Assembly: GCF_003334385.1 (NCBI RefSeq)
Contig: NZ_QOWN01000065.1
Reading direction: 5' to 3' (one strand)
Length of the DNA: 15,823 nucleotides
Source: Escherichia coli
Lineage (GTDB): Bacteria > Pseudomonadota > Gammaproteobacteria > Enterobacterales > Enterobacteriaceae
Shown: one piece after another, positions 1 to 15,823 of the stretch
How the letters are laid out: each line of letters begins with the position of its first letter
How positions within the stretch are numbered: the first letter of the stretch is position 1
Position numbers and translations under genes: made by a program
Notes under the pieces: model-generated
What the model was told of the DNA's origin: nothing
Databases searched by the model: none
What the model saw: the letters and a program-made list of their open reading frames with translations, nothing else

Positions 1-142
1 TAGGCCGGATAAGGCGTTCACGCCGCATCCGGCAGTCGTGCGCAGATGCCTGATGCGACGCTAACGCGTCTTATCAGACCTACAAATTCTCACGCCATCC
101 GTAGGCCGGATAAGGCGTTCACGCCGCATCCGGCAGTCGTGC
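1..142. repeat. REP/BIME cluster: a 41-bp unit (taggccggataaggcgttcacgccgcatccggcagtcgtgc) at 1..41 is repeated exactly at 102..142, with an oppositely oriented REP-like palindromic unit (gcctgatgcgacgctaacgcgtcttatcagacctac) at about 49..84
   Basis: Direct exact repeat and GC-rich imperfect palindromes of the GCCGGATG...CATCCGGC type seen in the sequence; REP elements are well known in E. coli intergenic regions. Lies downstream of the mhpE 3' end. Confidence 0.75.
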
Positions 143-182
143 TGGGATGGGCATACAAAATGCACGTTCTCGGCAGTCATCA

Positions 183-1192
183 TTATTTGTTGTTGCGCAG
201 ATCCAGCGCCACGTCAACGATCATATCCTCCTGGCCGCCAACCATCCGGCGTTTGCCCAGCTCAACGAGAATATCCACCGCACTTAAGCCATAACGCGCC
301 GCCGCCGTTTCACAGTGACGCAGGAAGCTCGAGTAAACACCAGCGTATCCCAGCGCCAGCGTTTCGCGATCGACTCGTACCGGTCGATCCTGCAACGGAC
401 GCACCAGGTCGTCGGCGGCATCCATTAACGCATAGAGATCGGTCCCATGCTGCCAGCCCAGTTTATCCGCGGCGGCAATAAACACTTCCAGCGGTGCGTT
501 ACCTGCGCCCGCGCCCATTCCCGCGAGGCTGGCGTCGATTCGGTCGCAGCCCTCTTCCACCGCCGCGATAGAGTTCGCCACGCCAAGACTCAGGTTATGG
601 TGAGCGTGCATGCCAGTTTGCGTTTCTGGTTTCAGCTCTGCTTTCAGGGCGCGGAAACGGTCACGGATATCGCTCATGTTCATCGCACCGCCAGAATCCA
701 CCACATAAATACAGGTCGCACCGTAGCCTTCCATCAGCTTTGCCTGCTTGGCGAGATTCTCCGGCGTGGTCATATGGCTCATCATCAGAAAACCAACGGT
801 GTCCATTCCGAGCTCGCGGGCATACTGAATATGCTGGGCGGAAACATCAGCTTCGGTACAGTGCGTTGCCACACGAACCACCCGCGCGCCAGCCTGCCAG
901 GCATTTTTCAGATCGTGAATAGTGCCGATTCCTGGCAGCAACAACGTCGCGATTTTGGCGTGCTTCACCACATCCGCCGCCGCTTCAATCCATTCAAGGT
1001 CGCTATGTGCGCCGAAACCATAGTTAAAGCTGGAACCTTGCAAACCGTCGCCGTGGGCCACTTCAATCGAATCCACGCGGGCATCGTCCAGTGCTTTGGC
1101 AATCTGGCGAACGTTTTCCAGCGAATACTGATGACGAATGGCGTGCATACCGTCACGCAATGTGACGTCCGAGATATAAAGTTTTTTACCGT

Positions 1193-1196
<4 letters not shown>
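183..1196 (-). CDS. mhpE: 4-hydroxy-2-oxovalerate aldolase (337 aa)
   Basis: 337-aa ORF; product and length match MhpE as recalled; HMG/pyruvate-aldolase-like sequence; start overlaps the mhpF stop by 4 nt (ATGA), consistent with operon coupling. Confidence 0.93.
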
Positions 1197-2958
<1,762 letters not shown>

Positions 2959-3825
2959 TTAAGGGCGTGCGAGGAAATTCAGCACCAGTTGATTGAAAGC
3001 GTCGGCATGTTCCCACTGCGCCCAGTGACCACAGTCGCGGAAGATATGCAGTTCAGAACCGGCAATGCCGGACAGCAGACGCAGACCCGCATCCATCGGC
3101 ACAAAGCGGTCGTTGCGCCCCCAGACAATCAGGGTTTGCGCTTTGATTTCCGCCAGACGTGGGCCAAAATCCGGGAACTGTTTCGGATTAGCTTCCAGGC
3201 TCTTAACGAAGTTTTCCAGGTGATCGCGGCGCGACAGCATATTATTCAGGCGCGCTTCAAACAGGGCGTCGGTCAAATCGCTGGTATCAAAAACGAAGAT
3301 ATCCATCATCAGCTTCAGGTTTTCGATAGTCGGCTGACGATAAAGCTGATTCAGTCGCTTAATACCTTCGGTTGGCATCGGCGTAAACAAACTCATGCCG
3401 CCCGTACCGCCGCCCATCAGCACCAGTTTGCCGACGCGCTCCGGCCATTTAAGGGTGAACGCCACAGAACTATGGCCCCCCATCGAGTTGCCCAGCAGGT
3501 GGATTTTGGCGATATCCAGTTGATCCACCACGCTTTTCAGGATTCGTGCATTAAGATCCGATCGCGAACCACTATTAACGACCGAATCGCTCTTGCCCCA
3601 ACCCGGACAATCCAGCAGGATCACCCGATAGCCCGCCTCTACCAGCGGATCGATATTGCGGCTGAAGTTCGCCCAGCCAGTAGCACCCGGGCCGGAACCA
3701 TGCAGCAGGACAACGGTTTCGTCGCCTTGTCCGCAGTCATTAAAATGGATGCGCAGCGTTTTACCCGCTTCTTCTACATTCAGAAAACGGCTGGTGGCGG
3801 CTTCGGTTTGTGGCTGATAACTCAT
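2959..3825 (-). CDS. mhpC: 2-hydroxy-6-oxonona-2,4-dienedioate hydrolase (alpha/beta hydrolase, 288 aa)
   Basis: The track ORF 2959..3888 is 309 aa; the recalled MhpC is 288 aa starting [14 protein letters not shown], which puts the start at 3825, preceded by an AGGAGA RBS. GNSMGG nucleophile-elbow motif present. Confidence 0.9.
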
Positions 3826-3842: not shown

Positions 3843-4787
3843 TCAGTTCTCTGTTCTGGCGCTTAACGAGCCAAATCCGGCAATCCACTCCGGGATTGGG
3901 CGGTAATAACGCCCTTCGCTACGCCAGTTGCCAAACGCAGAAATAGCGGCAAAAGCGGCGACCCAGGTTTTGATTTAATGTGTCGACTTTCCGGCAATGG
4001 CGGAAAGCTCTTCGTTACTGACGGCATCCAGTTCCTGTATGCGTCCCTGCTCCAGCAAAGTCATGAACTGGTTATCCCAAATCGGGTTGAGCGGATGCAG
4101 CGTTCTCTGATCCTCAACAAACTTCTCAGCGGCGCTAATCACCCGTTGCTGACGCAATTCGCGCTCACTGGCGGGTAAATCTTTCCCGCTCCCCAACAGA
4201 CGGTCGCGCATATGGGCATCGGCTTTCGCCAGTTCGGGCACCGGCGGCTGATGGGAAAGCCCACCGGAACCCAGGAACAGCACGCGTTTATTGAGAGTGC
4301 TGGTGAAACGTCCAATGGCTTCACCCAACATGCGGGTACGCTGGAAACCGGGCAGCGGCGTGGCGACACCGTTGATGAACACAGGCAGAACTGGCACCTT
4401 ATCCAGCCCACCGAGCAGGAACTCCAGCGGCTGGGCGAACCCGTGGTCCACCTGCATACAGTAAGAAACGGCAAGATCGATCCCGCTCTTCATGACGGCA
4501 TGCGCACAGGCCTCCGCCAGCTCCACAGGCACGGGCAGCTCTCCTGCCGCACTGCCGAAATCACCAATTGCCGTCGCTCCAACGCCTAAACAGAACGGTG
4601 GCATCACGTCATAGAAAAAGCCGTTGTAGTGATCTGGCGCAAACAGCACCACCAGTTCAGGGGAGAATGCCGCAATACGCTCGCGGGCGCTGGCAATCAC
4701 GCCATTGACCTCATCGAGCACCTCTTGCGCCGGGTCGACATACCCCACCAGCGGCGAGTGGGAAAGACAGTGAAGATAAGCGTGCAT
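3843..4787 (-). CDS. mhpB: 3-carboxyethylcatechol 2,3-dioxygenase (extradiol dioxygenase), reading frame interrupted by an in-frame TAA at 3975..3977. The uninterrupted ORF is 3975..4787 (270 aa); the same frame continues for 43 more codons ([43 protein letters not shown]) to the expected stop at 3843..3845
   Basis: The 270-aa ORF matches the MhpB N-terminal 270 residues as recalled (full length 314 aa). Directly after the TAA the frame encodes the recalled MhpB C-terminus. Consistent with a single-nucleotide nonsense change (plus-strand position 3977 A; expected C, giving GAA Glu). Confidence 0.85.
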
Positions 4788-4788
4788 A

Positions 4789-6453
4789 TCAGGCTACCTT
4801 TTCGACAGAAACGTCGGCATCAGGGCGGGTCAGCGTCATCACCGACGCCAGTTTATTCAGGGTCTTGCCCAGGGTTTGCGGAATGGCGGTGGCGGCAACA
4901 AAGCGATCCGGGCGCATCACCACCAGCGAAGCATTGTGTTGCGCGAACCAGCTACGCAGGCGACCTTGCGTATCGCCCACGCGTAGTACGCCGTCGTGGT
5001 TATCCTGTGCGGTATGAATTTGCACTTCCGGCACCACCTGAATGAAGCGTGTGCCCAACGCGCGCCACTGCTGGATTTGCTCGTCGCTCATCCCCCACAG
5101 TGGATTGCATCCCCAGCCAATTACCGCGAAGTTCGCGCCGATCGCGTTATCGAGCAGCGTCACGTCGCCGTTTTCCAGCGTGACTTTCGGCTGAATAAAC
5201 ATCTTGCCGACCGGAGAGTGCTTCGCTTCGCCCTCACGCATCAGCGCACCGCCGTAATATTGCGGCATCGGCTTGAAGCGCATTTCGAGGAAGTAGCGTT
5301 TTACTGGCGGCAGATAATTCAACAGCCAGGAAACGCCGTCACGTAACGTACCCTGCCAGCGTTTCGGCGGAGCCAGCACGTTGCCCGCCGTCACGGACAG
5401 GTCAATCATCGCTTTGGCGTGATCGCGACGTTCTTGTTGATAGGTATCGAGCAGCGCATCGCGGGCTTTCCCCTGGATAACCAACGCCAGTTTCCATGCG
5501 AGGTTAAAGGCGTCGCGCATACCACTGTTATAGCCCTGCCCCTGCCATACCGGCATGATGTGCGCGGCATCGCCCGCCAGCAGTACGCGATCAATACGGA
5601 AACGTTGCGCCAGTCGCGCGTTGTGGGTGTAGACACGCTGGCGAATCAATTCAACATTGTCCGGATTAGGCAGCACTTTGCTTAACAGCTTGCGCATATT
5701 TTGCGGCTCACGCAACTGCTCTTCGGTTTCTCCCGGCATCACCATAAATTCAAAGCGACGTACCGCATGAGGCAGCGCGGCAGAAACATACGGGCGCACC
5801 GGATCGCAACACAAATAGATATGCGGCGTACTTAACGGATCGTTGGCGATATCTACCACAATCCACTGATTTGGCGCAGTTTTACCTTCAAACGGCACAT
5901 TCAGAGTGCGACGGACAAAACTTGCTCCACCGTCACAGGCTACCAGCCACTGGGCTTTGACTATTTCCCGCTGCCCTTCTGCCGTTTTCAGGTGCAAGGT
6001 CACTTCGTCATCTTGCTGACTGAAGGCCTCCAGCTCGCGGGAAAACAAGCAGCGCACATTCGGAAAACGCGACACCCCTTCCAGCATCACCGCATCGACC
6101 TGCGGCTGAATAAAGGCGTTACGGCGCGGCCAGCCAAATTCATCGGTCATTGGCTGAATATCAGCAAAACAGCGGCCTTTCGGGGTGAGAAAACGCATCG
6201 CGTGCCACGGCGTAGTGTGCGGCAGAACATCATCGACCAGGCCGACCGACTGCATGGTGCGCAGCGCCTCGTCATCAATACCAATCGCACGCGGGTAGTC
6301 GATCAACTTATCGAGTTTCTCCACCACCAGCACGTCAATGCCCATCTGGCCGAGATAGTTCGCCATCATCAGCCCAACCGGGCCGGCACCAGCGATCGCC
6401 ACCTGAACGCTATGGTTAACAGCAGGCTGGATGTCAGGGTGTTGTATTGCCAT
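4789..6453 (-). CDS. mhpA: 3-(3-hydroxyphenyl)propionate hydroxylase, FAD-dependent monooxygenase (554 aa)
   Basis: 554-aa ORF with N-terminal FAD-binding GxGxxG motif ([16 protein letters not shown]); length matches MhpA; stop lies 1 nt from the mhpB start. Confidence 0.93.
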
Positions 6454-6594
6454 TTCAGTACCTCACGACTCGGACAAAATGTCGTTGCGCGCACAGTACA
6501 GCGCAACTTATTTTGTTAAAAACATGTAAATGATTTTTTATTGTGCGCTCAGTATAGGAAGGGTGTTTTCGGCTACAATCAAAACATGCCCGAA

Positions 6595-6611
6595 TGTGCA
6601 CCAGGTGCACC
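6595..6611. promoter_or_regulatory. 17-bp imperfect palindrome tgtgcaccaggtgcacc (reverse complement ggtgcacctggtgcaca) in the divergent mhpR–mhpA intergenic region; candidate MhpR operator of the mhp catabolic promoter
   Basis: Palindrome seen in the sequence; assignment to MhpR is from recollection of the published Pa operator and is not verified here. Confidence 0.5.
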
Positions 6612-6643
6612 ACGTTGTTTTAACTATAGAAATGTCAATTAAT

Positions 6644-7477
6644 ATGCAGAACAATGAGCAGACGGAATACAAAACCGTGCGCGGCTTAACCCGCGGTCTA
6701 ATGTTATTAAATATGTTAAATAAACTTGATGGCGGTGCCAGCGTCGGGCTGCTGGCGGAACTCAGCGGCCTGCATCGCACCACTGTGCGGCGACTGCTGG
6801 AGACGCTGCAGGAAGAGGGATATGTCCGCCGTAGCCCCTCCGATGATAGTTTTCGACTGACCATCAAAGTGCGGCAATTAAGCGAAGGATTTCGTGACGA
6901 ACAGTGGATTTCTGCACTGGCGGCCCCACTGCTGGGCGATCTGTTGCGCGAAGTGGTATGGCCGACAGATGTGTCCACGCTGGATGTTGATGCAATGGTG
7001 GTACGCGAAACCACTCACCGTTTCAGCCGCTTATCCTTTCACCGGGCAATGGTCGGGCGACGTTTGCCGCTTCTGAAAACCGCCTCGGGCCTGACCTGGC
7101 TGGCCTTTTGCCCGTAACAAGACCGCAAGGAATTAATCGAAATGTTAGCCTCCCGCCCCGGTGATGACTATCAACTGGCACGGGAACCGTTAAAGCTGGA
7201 AGCCATTCTGGCGCGCGCGCGCAAAGAGGGTTACGGACAGAACTACCGCGGCTGGGATCAGGAGGAGAAGATCGCCTCTATCGCCGTACCGCTGCGCAGT
7301 GAACAACGGGTGATTGGCTGTCTGAATCTGGTGTATATGGCGAGCGCAATGACCATTGAACAGGCAGCGGAAAAGCATCTTCCGGCGCTACAACGGGTAG
7401 CAAAACAGATCGAAGAAGGGGTTGAATCGCAGGCTATTCTGGTGGCCGGAAGGCGAAGCGGCATGCATTTACGTTGA
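6644..7477 (+). CDS. mhpR: IclR-family transcriptional activator of the mhp operon (expected 277 aa), interrupted by an in-frame TAA at 7115..7117. Present as an N-terminal ORF 6644..7117 (157 aa from MQNNEQ; wHTH domain) and a same-frame C-terminal ORF 7142..7477 (111 aa)
   Basis: Track ORFs 6530..7117 and 7142..7477 are in the same frame, separated only by TAA plus 8 sense codons (QDRKELIE). Read-through from ATG 6644 gives exactly 277 codons, the recalled MhpR length. IclR-type HTH (LSGLHRTTVRRLLETL) present in the N-terminal part. Confidence 0.85.
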
Positions 7478-7489
7478 CACCATCGAATG

Positions 7490-7518
7490 GCGCAAAACCT
7501 TTCGCGGTATGGCATGAT
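7490..7518 (+). promoter_or_regulatory. lacI constitutive promoter: -35 GCGCAA (7490..7495) and -10 CATGAT (7513..7518); wild-type, not lacIq
   Basis: Sequence gacaccatcgaatggcgcaaaacctttcgcggtatggcatgatagcgcccgg matches the canonical wild-type lacI promoter as recalled; the lacIq C-to-T at the -35 is absent. Confidence 0.85.
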
Positions 7519-7553
7519 AGCGCCCGGAAGAGAGTCAATTCAGGGTGGTGAAT

Positions 7554-8636
7554 GTGAAACCAGTAACGTTATACGATGTCGCAGAGTATGCCGGTGTCTC
7601 TTATCAGACCGTTTCCCGCGTGGTGAACCAGGCCAGCCACGTTTCTGCGAAAACGCGGGAAAAAGTGGAAGCGGCGATGGCGGAGCTGAATTACATTCCC
7701 AACCGCGTGGCACAACAACTGGCGGGCAAACAGTCGTTGCTGATTGGCGTTGCCACCTCCAGTCTGGCCCTGCACGCGCCGGCGCAAATTGTCGCGGCGA
7801 TTAAATCTCGCGCCGATCAACTGGGTGCCAGCGTGGTGGTGTCGATGGTAGAACGAAGCGGCGTCGAAGCCTGTAAAGCGGCGGTGCACAATCTTCTCGC
7901 GCAACGCGTCAGTGGGCTGATCATTAACTATCCGCTGGATGACCAGGATGCCATTGCTGTGGAAGCTGCCTGCACTAATGTTCCGGCGTTATTTCTTGAT
8001 GTCTCTGACCAGACACCCATCAACAGTATTATTTTCTCCCATGAAGACGGTACGCGACTGGGCGTGGAGCATCTGGTCGCATTGGGTCACCAGCAAATCG
8101 CGCTGTTAGCGGGCCCATTAAGTTCTGTCTCGGCGCGTCTGCGTCTGGCTGGCTGGCATAAATATCTCACTCGCAATCAAATTCAGCCGATAGCGGAACG
8201 GGAAGGCGACTGGAGTGCCATGTCCGGTTTTCAACAAACCATGCAAATGCTGAATGAGGGCATCGTTCCCACTGCGATGCTGGTTGCCAACGATCAGATG
8301 GCGCTGGGCGCAATGCGCGCCATTACCGAGTCCGGGCTGCGCGTTGGTGCGGATATCTCGGTAGTGGGATACGACGATACCGAAGACAGCTCATGTTATA
8401 TCCCGCCGTTAACCACCATCAAACAGGATTTTCGCCTGCTGGGGCAAACCAGCGTGGACCGCTTGCTGCAACTCTCTCAGGGCCAGGCGGTGAAGGGCAA
8501 TCAGCTGTTGCCCGTCTCACTGGTGAAAAGAAAAACCACCCTGGCGCCCAATACGCAAACCGCCTCTCCCCGCGCGTTGGCCGATTCATTAATGCAGCTG
8601 GCACGACAGGTTTCCCGACTGGAAAGCGGGCAGTGA
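7554..8636 (+). CDS. lacI: lactose operon repressor LacI (360 aa), GTG start
   Basis: Begins GTG AAA CCA GTA (MKPVTLYDVAEYAGVSYQTVSRVVNQ); the track ORF starts two codons further upstream on an alternative start. Protein matches LacI throughout as recalled, except codon 77 (GCG Ala here, TCG Ser recalled). Ends ...RLESGQ followed by TGA. Confidence 0.96.
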   Translation: MKPVTLYDVAEYAGVSYQTVSRVVNQASHVSAKTREKVEAAMAELNYIPNRVAQQLAGKQSLLIGVATSSLALHAPAQIVAAIKSRADQLGASVVVSMVERSGVEACKAAVHNLLAQRVSGLIINYPLDDQDAIAVEAACTNVPALFLDVSDQTPINSIIFSHEDGTRLGVEHLVALGHQQIALLAGPLSSVSARLRLAGWHKYLTRNQIQPIAEREGDWSAMSGFQQTMQMLNEGIVPTAMLVANDQMALGAMRAITESGLRVGADISVVGYDDTEDSSCYIPPLTTIKQDFRLLGQTSVDRLLQLSQGQAVKGNQLLPVSLVKRKTTLAPNTQTASPRALADSLMQLARQVSRLESGQ

Positions 8637-8649
8637 GCGCAACGCAATT
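8629..8649 (+). promoter_or_regulatory. lac auxiliary operator O3 (ggcagtgagcgcaacgcaatt), overlapping the lacI 3' end
   Basis: Exact match to the canonical O3 sequence as recalled. Confidence 0.9.
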
Positions 8650-8671
8650 AATGTGAGTTAGCTCACTCATT
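8650..8671 (+). promoter_or_regulatory. CRP (CAP) binding site of the lac promoter (aatgtgagttagctcactcatt)
   Basis: Canonical TGTGA-N6-TCACT lac CAP site, exact as recalled. Confidence 0.92.
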
Positions 8672-8684
8672 AGGCACCCCAGGC

Positions 8685-8714
8685 TTTACACTTTATGCTT
8701 CCGGCTCGTATGTT
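8685..8714 (+). promoter_or_regulatory. lac promoter P1: -35 TTTACA (8685..8690) and -10 TATGTT (8709..8714); wild-type, not lacUV5
   Basis: Hexamers and spacing match wild-type lacP; the -10 is TATGTT rather than the UV5 TATAAT. Confidence 0.92.
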
Positions 8715-8720
8715 GTGTAA

Positions 8721-11833
<3,113 letters not shown>

Positions 11834-15605: not shown

Positions 15606-15823
15606 TTACGCTGCGGTCGGTTGGCGTAGCGGTATGGCACAAACGCGAGGATTAGCGGCCAGTGGCACAAACTGGCGGGTTGCGCCGTCAAAAGCTGCGA
15701 TGCTGCCGCTTTCAATGTCGTAGACCCAGCCGTGCAGGGCGATCCGCCCATAAGCGCTAACTTAAGGGTTGTGGTATTACGCCTGATATGATTTAACGTG
15801 CCGATGAATTACTCTCACGATAA
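15606..15823 (-). CDS. cynT: carbonic anhydrase CynT, 3' portion only (gene runs off the window). The last 48 codons (15609..15752) encode [47 protein letters not shown]; upstream of about 15753 the frame is not open
   Basis: Hand translation of the minus strand gives the CynT C-terminus as recalled, with a TAA stop at 15606..15608. An in-frame TAA lies at 15762..15764 and all three minus-strand frames contain stops in 15753..15823. Confidence 0.7.

Follow-up and report, generated by a model that had tools for sequence, protein, structure and literature searches.

The lac region and codon 77 of lacI

The window, by which we mean the whole stretch of DNA that was analysed (15,823 nt), carries the genes from mhpE to mhpA on the minus strand, mhpR, lacI and lacZYA on the plus strand, and cynX-cynS-cynT on the minus strand. 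It is gap-free and collinear with positions 375063-359315 of the MG1655 genome (NC_000913.3), from which it differs at eight positions over 15,749 nt (99.95% identity). The lacI coding sequence (7554-8636, plus strand) starts with GTG and extends over 360 codons to the stop codon at 8634-8636, and its reading frame is intact.

The order mhpR-lacI-lacZYA, with the lac promoter and operator between lacI and lacZ, matches the position of the lac repressor gene in E. coli. A product identical to the LacI of the window is assigned to the Pfam families PF00356 (LacI), PF13377, PF00532 and PF13407, which include the Peripla_BP families and agree with a helix-turn-helix LacI domain at the N-terminus and a core resembling periplasmic-binding proteins, and the LacI chains of the PDB entries 3EDC, 1LBG and 1EFA match the window product with E-values of 1e-212 or lower. 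Judged by gene order, domain content and these matches, the gene is the E. coli lac repressor, a LacI orthologue of the LacI/GalR family. The protein has 359 of its 360 residues in common with wild-type E. coli LacI (b0345; UniProt LACI_ECOLI; PDB 1LBG/1LBI/1EFA/2P9H). Length, GTG start, location upstream of lacZYA and the wild-type lacI promoter are also the same. Unlike the wild-type locus, the window has Ala77, and its control region downstream of lacI has -2A, -1A and O1 +12A.

In a base-by-base comparison with K-12 lacI a single mismatch was found in 1,083 nt (99.9% identity), which lies in codon 77 (7782-7784, plus strand) and accounts for the one residue of 360 that differs in the protein. 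The codon reads GCG (Ala) in the window and TCG (Ser) in K-12, owing to a T>G change of its first base at 7782. At 7776-7787 the window has GCGCCGGCGCAA, whereas MG1655 has GCGCCGTCGCAA; in wider context the two sequences are ...ctgcacgcgccgGcgcaaattgtc... and ...ctgcacgcgccgTcgcaaattgtc..., respectively. This difference had been pointed out in the original prediction, and its coordinates, base change, residue number and reference codon were correct. The alignment also agreed with the statement that the rest of LacI matches the reference, and the comparison with MG1655 bore out the description of the change as a T-to-G transversion leading to S77A in the N-subdomain of the core.

Seven other positions differ from MG1655. 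On the minus strand, the change at 3977 converts codon 271 of mhpB from GAA to TAA (E271*), and the change at 5715 is synonymous (codon 247 of mhpA, CTG>TTG, L247L). On the plus strand, codon 158 of mhpR is changed from GAA to TAA at 7115 (E158*), the lac promoter has a G>A substitution at -2 (8719), and codon 21 of lacZ carries a synonymous change at 8821 (GGC>GGA, G21G). The remaining two are G>A substitutions at -1 of the lac promoter (8720) and at +12 of operator O1 (8732), counted from the lac mRNA +1 at 8721. Among complete genomes no exact 61-mer was found for the variants at 3977, 7115, 7782 and 8821 and no exact match for the window's 91-mer spanning 8719, while the 5715 variant had an exact 61-mer in four.

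Both nonsense mutations are GAA>TAA changes, which fall at residue 158 of 277 in MhpR and at residue 271 of 314 in MhpB. Matching NCBI contigs list no gene at mhpR 7115 or at mhpB 3977. With its activator (MhpR) and its dioxygenase (MhpB) both truncated, the 3-hydroxyphenylpropionate (mhp) pathway probably does not function in the lineage of the window.

The control region between lacI and lacZ has features of its own. With the -1 G>A change at 8720 the arms flanking O1 (8714-8726 and 8736-8748) become fully complementary over 13 bp (TGTGTGAAATTGT ... ACAATTTCACACA). Arms of that length with a spacer of at most 12 nt would be created by only 8.5e-5 of the possible SNVs in the window. In the window the private G>A change at 8719 breaks the 13-bp arm again. 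The exact 91-mer with -1A and +12A is present in only 23 complete-genome records. A study of natural lac promoter and operator variation (Razo-Mejia et al. 2014, bioRxiv 10.1101/003772) contained nothing specific to 8719, 8720 or 8732.

Occurrence of the allele and strain background

An exact-sequence look-up of the S77A protein returned four NCBI accessions (HAH1515501.1, HAH9032645.1, HAM4715289.1 and RCQ56815.1) on five contigs; in the same look-up the wild-type LacI protein was found on at least 1,000 contigs. Two of the five contigs with the S77A protein proved to be 100.000% identical to the window, one over 15,743 nt (GCA_012738655.1, contig DABDAA010000006.1) and the other over 15,707 nt (GCA_012504395.1, contig DABAMG010000066.1). 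The lineage of the window has thus been sampled several times. A sequencing or assembly error at this one base would belong to the commonest type of error, a single-base difference, but at least two assemblies that were deposited independently carry the change at 7782 together with the seven other differences from MG1655. Given this agreement and the four separate accessions of the exact protein, we do not regard S77A as a sequencing error, an explanation to which we give practically no credence.

The 61-mer centred on the GCG of codon 77 had no exact match in the 5,386 of 5,426 complete E. coli genomes that carry lacI (megablast and blastn), a count in which a genome with GCG and a second SNP inside the 61-mer is indistinguishable from a TCG genome. 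Exact matches were likewise absent from 1,310 lacI-bearing plasmids (PLSDB). The allele is marked by the k-mer CACGCGCCGGCGCAAATTG. On these two counts we rejected the idea that GCG is a common natural or vector allele. The change is real, rare and private to the lineage, and the gene that carries it is intact. It is an ordinary case of a rare natural variant that can already be found both in public databases and in a published mutational scan.

When the whole window was used as a query, wild isolates ranked above every K-12 strain. The fewest differences from the window, six, were in 23CRST038 (human faeces, Ecuador), followed by USMARC-51408 (cattle) and DA33133 (human, Sweden) with seven each; the figure for MG1655 is eight. 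All three isolates have 8720A and the first two also have 8732A, and two more divergent ETEC strains have both. The window ends within an IS186 element inserted in cynT: its last 74 nt (15750-15823) reproduce exactly the end of this element and match MG1655 IS186B. Among complete genomes this IS186-cynT junction was found in SCU-104 only, isolated by rectal swab from a healthy student. Over the 15,823 nt SCU-104 differs from the window at the six private sites, at 8732 and at one private lacY SNP.

The lacI genes of 23CRST038, USMARC-51408, DA33133 and SCU-104 are the closest relatives for comparison. They lie on the same haplotype over 15.7 kb and share -1A. Some of the K-12-like isolates have the +12A operator variant, and SCU-104 has IS186 in cynT, as in the window. 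They differ from the window in having wild-type LacI (WP_000805902.1), intact mhpR and mhpB, and none of the six private substitutions. From this distribution 8720A and 8732A can be read as standing natural polymorphisms, and the other six changes as private to the lineage.

Some further observations concern the window ends. In SCU-104 hok and cysHIJ lie next to IS186, which implies a rearrangement, and the IS186-cynT junction query matches 22 places in this genome, suggesting many IS186 copies. Short-read contigs stop at the end of the window because of the IS186 insertion in cynT; the matching public contigs end at window position 15743. The first 142 nt of the window (1-142) also match K-12 at three further, overlapping positions, spaced by about 100 nt and lying a short way upstream (92-98% identity). 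They belong to an array of tandem repeats that lies between mhpE and mhpT and is probably why several short-read contigs begin at the start of the window.

A laboratory origin of S77A, by mutagenesis or engineering of K-12, would make the gene a classical lacI mutant or a designed variant. The 99.95% identity of the region to MG1655 is in keeping with such an origin, and so are the private changes, which are enriched for disruptive types and clustered around lac. However, no K-12 strain is as close to the window as are wild isolates of human, cattle and other origin, and these isolates carry 8720A and 8732A, while the IS186 insertion in cynT is common to the rectal-swab isolate SCU-104. The allele is absent from K-12 laboratory strains among the complete genomes and from the plasmids and vectors in PLSDB, and the searched literature mentions LacI S77A only in the scan dataset discussed below. 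We consider a laboratory origin very improbable. The notion of a K-12 laboratory derivative with extra mutations was rejected, because wild isolates are closer, two of the eight differences are common to them and SCU-104 has the same IS186 junction, features that K-12 does not have. The genomic comparisons indicate that the strain is not a K-12 derivative and is a natural E. coli with a common K-12-like mhp-lac-cyn haplotype. The original prediction had added S77A to a count of non-reference substitutions in the window. As a statement of difference from K-12 this holds, but it is misleading in part, since the background is not K-12 and two of the eight differences are natural polymorphisms.

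Residue 77 in the lac repressor

The S77A protein was modelled with AlphaFold2 from an alignment that contained 30 orthologues (mean pLDDT 85). In the model, helices at 6-13, 17-24 and 32-44 are followed by the hinge helix (50-56) and then by a core of alternating strands and helices, among them a strand (63-68) and a helix (75-89) in which residue 77 occupies the third position. The placement of residue 77 in the N-subdomain of the core was right, whereas the description of it as near the hinge was loose, the residue lying in helix 75-89 and the hinge helix at 50-56. According to Tack et al. 2021 (PMC8009258), His74 starts helix 5 at the dimer interface, Ala75 is located beside the ligand pocket, and Gln78 makes a cross-dimer contact with Leu71′. 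Ser77 is flanked by an inducer-pocket residue (Ala75) and by residues of the monomer-monomer interface (His74 and Gln78), and its replacement with Ala removes one hydroxyl group.

Conservation was assessed with 133 cluster representatives of LacI orthologues, which include Citrobacter, Klebsiella, Salmonella, Serratia, Pectobacterium, Tatumella and Shimwellia. Ser occupies column 77 in 130 of them, down to 69% identity. Ser is missing only from the query itself, from a garbled sequence and from a chimera, and Ala77 as a tolerated orthologue state was not found among the 133. In a curated alignment of 30 sequences Ser77 is present in all except the query. The surrounding motif (LHAPSQIVAAIKS) is almost invariant, and from the orthologue motif L73-H74-A75-P76-S77-Q78-I79-V80 the window departs at position 77 only. 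Ala77 is a deviation within the LacI family and does not exclude the protein from it. The near invariance of Ser in the orthologues indicates that residue 77 is under purifying selection in nature.

The functional effect of the same substitution in the same protein can be estimated from the mutational scan of Tack et al. 2021 (Mol Syst Biol 17:e10179, PMC8009258; Dataset EV1). The wild type has log10 values of 2.868 for G0, 4.386 for Ginf and 2.028 for EC50, and the neural-network estimates for S77A are 3.063, 4.360 and 1.793, each ±0.347. These figures are model estimates based on 15 library variants carrying multiple mutations, S77A never having been measured as a single mutant. They correspond to a basal level about 1.6-fold and an EC50 about 0.58-fold that of the wild type with an unchanged maximal level, all within one SD (0.35 log10). 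The conditions of the scan also differ from the present case: there the gene was plasmid-borne, the substitution was combined with other mutations and the response was read with IPTG and a reporter, whereas here a wild strain carries the substitution singly, in its own chromosomal lacI. A full-text literature search, with a scope that did not extend to the suppressor-substitution papers (Markiewicz 1994; Suckow 1996), yielded nothing on LacI Ser77 or S77A beyond this dataset.

Other substitutions of Ser77 are listed in the same dataset. S77W behaves much like the wild type, Ginf is about 0.2 log10 lower with S77L and S77P, and with S77T the EC50 falls by 0.74 log10. Residue 77 is thus tolerant of substitution in the assay, but the effect of S77T implies that it is not inert.

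The expectation that the effect is likely mild agrees with these estimates, which for S77A deviate from the wild type by less than one SD. We infer from the model estimates that the functional effect would be small and in the direction just described. The S77A repressor would be a working, inducible protein with at most a small allosteric shift, towards a slightly higher sensitivity to inducer and slightly more leakage. We do not call S77A strictly neutral, mainly because the evolutionary invariance of the residue contrasts with its tolerance in the assay. The IPTG reporter assay may underrate the importance of residue 77.

Origin of the substitution and the cluster of private changes

The T>G change creates a perfect 10-bp palindrome, GCGCCGGCGC, at 7776-7785, where the ancestral sequence GCGCCGTCGC is a quasi-palindrome. 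Point mutations templated by quasi-palindromes through template switching have reportedly been described in E. coli in the work of Ripley and of Lovett. Completion of an imperfect inverted repeat, as by the T>G change, is what this mechanism is expected to produce. The palindrome is, however, only 10 bp long and has no spacer, and about 1% of random SNVs would do likewise. A perfect palindrome of at least 10 bp results from 0.95% of all possible SNVs in the window, which corresponds to a chance of about 7% for at least one among eight sites. The change at 7782 showed no recurrence among the 5,386 complete genomes. The palindrome is a real feature of the sequence, but with a chance of about 7% and no recurrence quasi-palindrome templating is statistically unconvincing as the origin, and we did not adopt it. 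Template switching as the source of T>G is only a hint.

The six lineage-private substitutions all lie within 4,845 nt (3977-8821), while the other ~10.9 kb of the window and a further 2.43 kb compared upstream had none. For six random points on ~18.2 kb the probability that all fall in one 4.85-kb span is about 0.006, a post hoc value which we calculated as n·r^(n-1) − (n-1)·r^n with r = 0.266. Transversions make up much of the spectrum (three G:C>T:A, two G:C>A:T and one A:T>C:G). The five private coding changes comprise two nonsense mutations, one missense mutation (S77A) and two synonymous changes. A search for an imported haplotype as the source left five of the six private variants with no exact match in complete genomes. 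The mhpA 5715 variant is the only one of the cluster that recurs, the four genomes including 90-3040, 2013C-3492 and 2013C-4830; either homoplasy or a common donor would account for its recurrence.

The cluster is compatible with a short recombination tract whose donor would be an unsampled relative with a decaying mhp cluster, and also with a local burst of error-prone synthesis. A mutator lineage combined with chance may be a further cause. The packing of private, partly disruptive substitutions around lacI is the only aspect of the window that we find mildly unusual.

A more specific proposal is that S77A, instead of being an isolated neutral SNP, is one of the products of a single localized mutational burst, for instance by error-prone repair synthesis or template switching, that extended over ~4.85 kb from mhpB to the start of lacZ; a variant of the proposal adds that S77A, -2A and O1 +12A form a co-adjusted set. 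We regard this proposal as rather unlikely. If it is true, the two nonsense mutations, the promoter change and the substitution of a repressor residue invariant among orthologues would all be products of the burst that still await purging.

The substitution might also be functionally significant and possibly selected, having been fixed together with promoter -2A and O1 +12A; repressor and operator would then form a co-adjusted set that retunes repression or inducibility in the lineage. Of the differences from SCU-104, three (7782, 8719 and 8732) are located in the lac control system, Ser77 is kept in essentially all orthologues, and both S77T and substitutions at neighbouring positions change EC50 strongly. 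The estimated direction of the S77A effect, a lower EC50 with a higher basal level, also accords with this idea. But the estimate is within error of the wild type, and the cluster also contains the two synonymous changes and two nonsense mutations in unrelated mhp genes, thus resembling unselected mutation. Moreover, 8732A is present in 23CRST038, USMARC-51408 and the ETEC strains, which have wild-type LacI. By our own estimate the two of six private changes that fall in the ~1.2-kb lacI and control region, with ~0.46 expected, are not a significant excess (P ~0.08). A functionally significant, possibly selected S77A is in our judgement improbable.

The GCG codon is a genuine, lineage-private S77A missense polymorphism in an otherwise wild-type chromosomal lacI, which is probably recent and mild or near-neutral in its effect. 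On this reading S77A would have arisen with the five other private substitutions within 4.85 kb, through a recombination tract or a local mutation burst and not through selection on LacI.

For the repressor itself the substitution matters little: LacI is among the best-studied proteins, and the data predict near-wild-type behaviour. If S77A alters the response to the natural inducer or the stability of the protein, it would show something that the IPTG reporter scan misses. The tight private cluster around lacI may illustrate how a localized mutation burst or a short recombination tract looks in nature.
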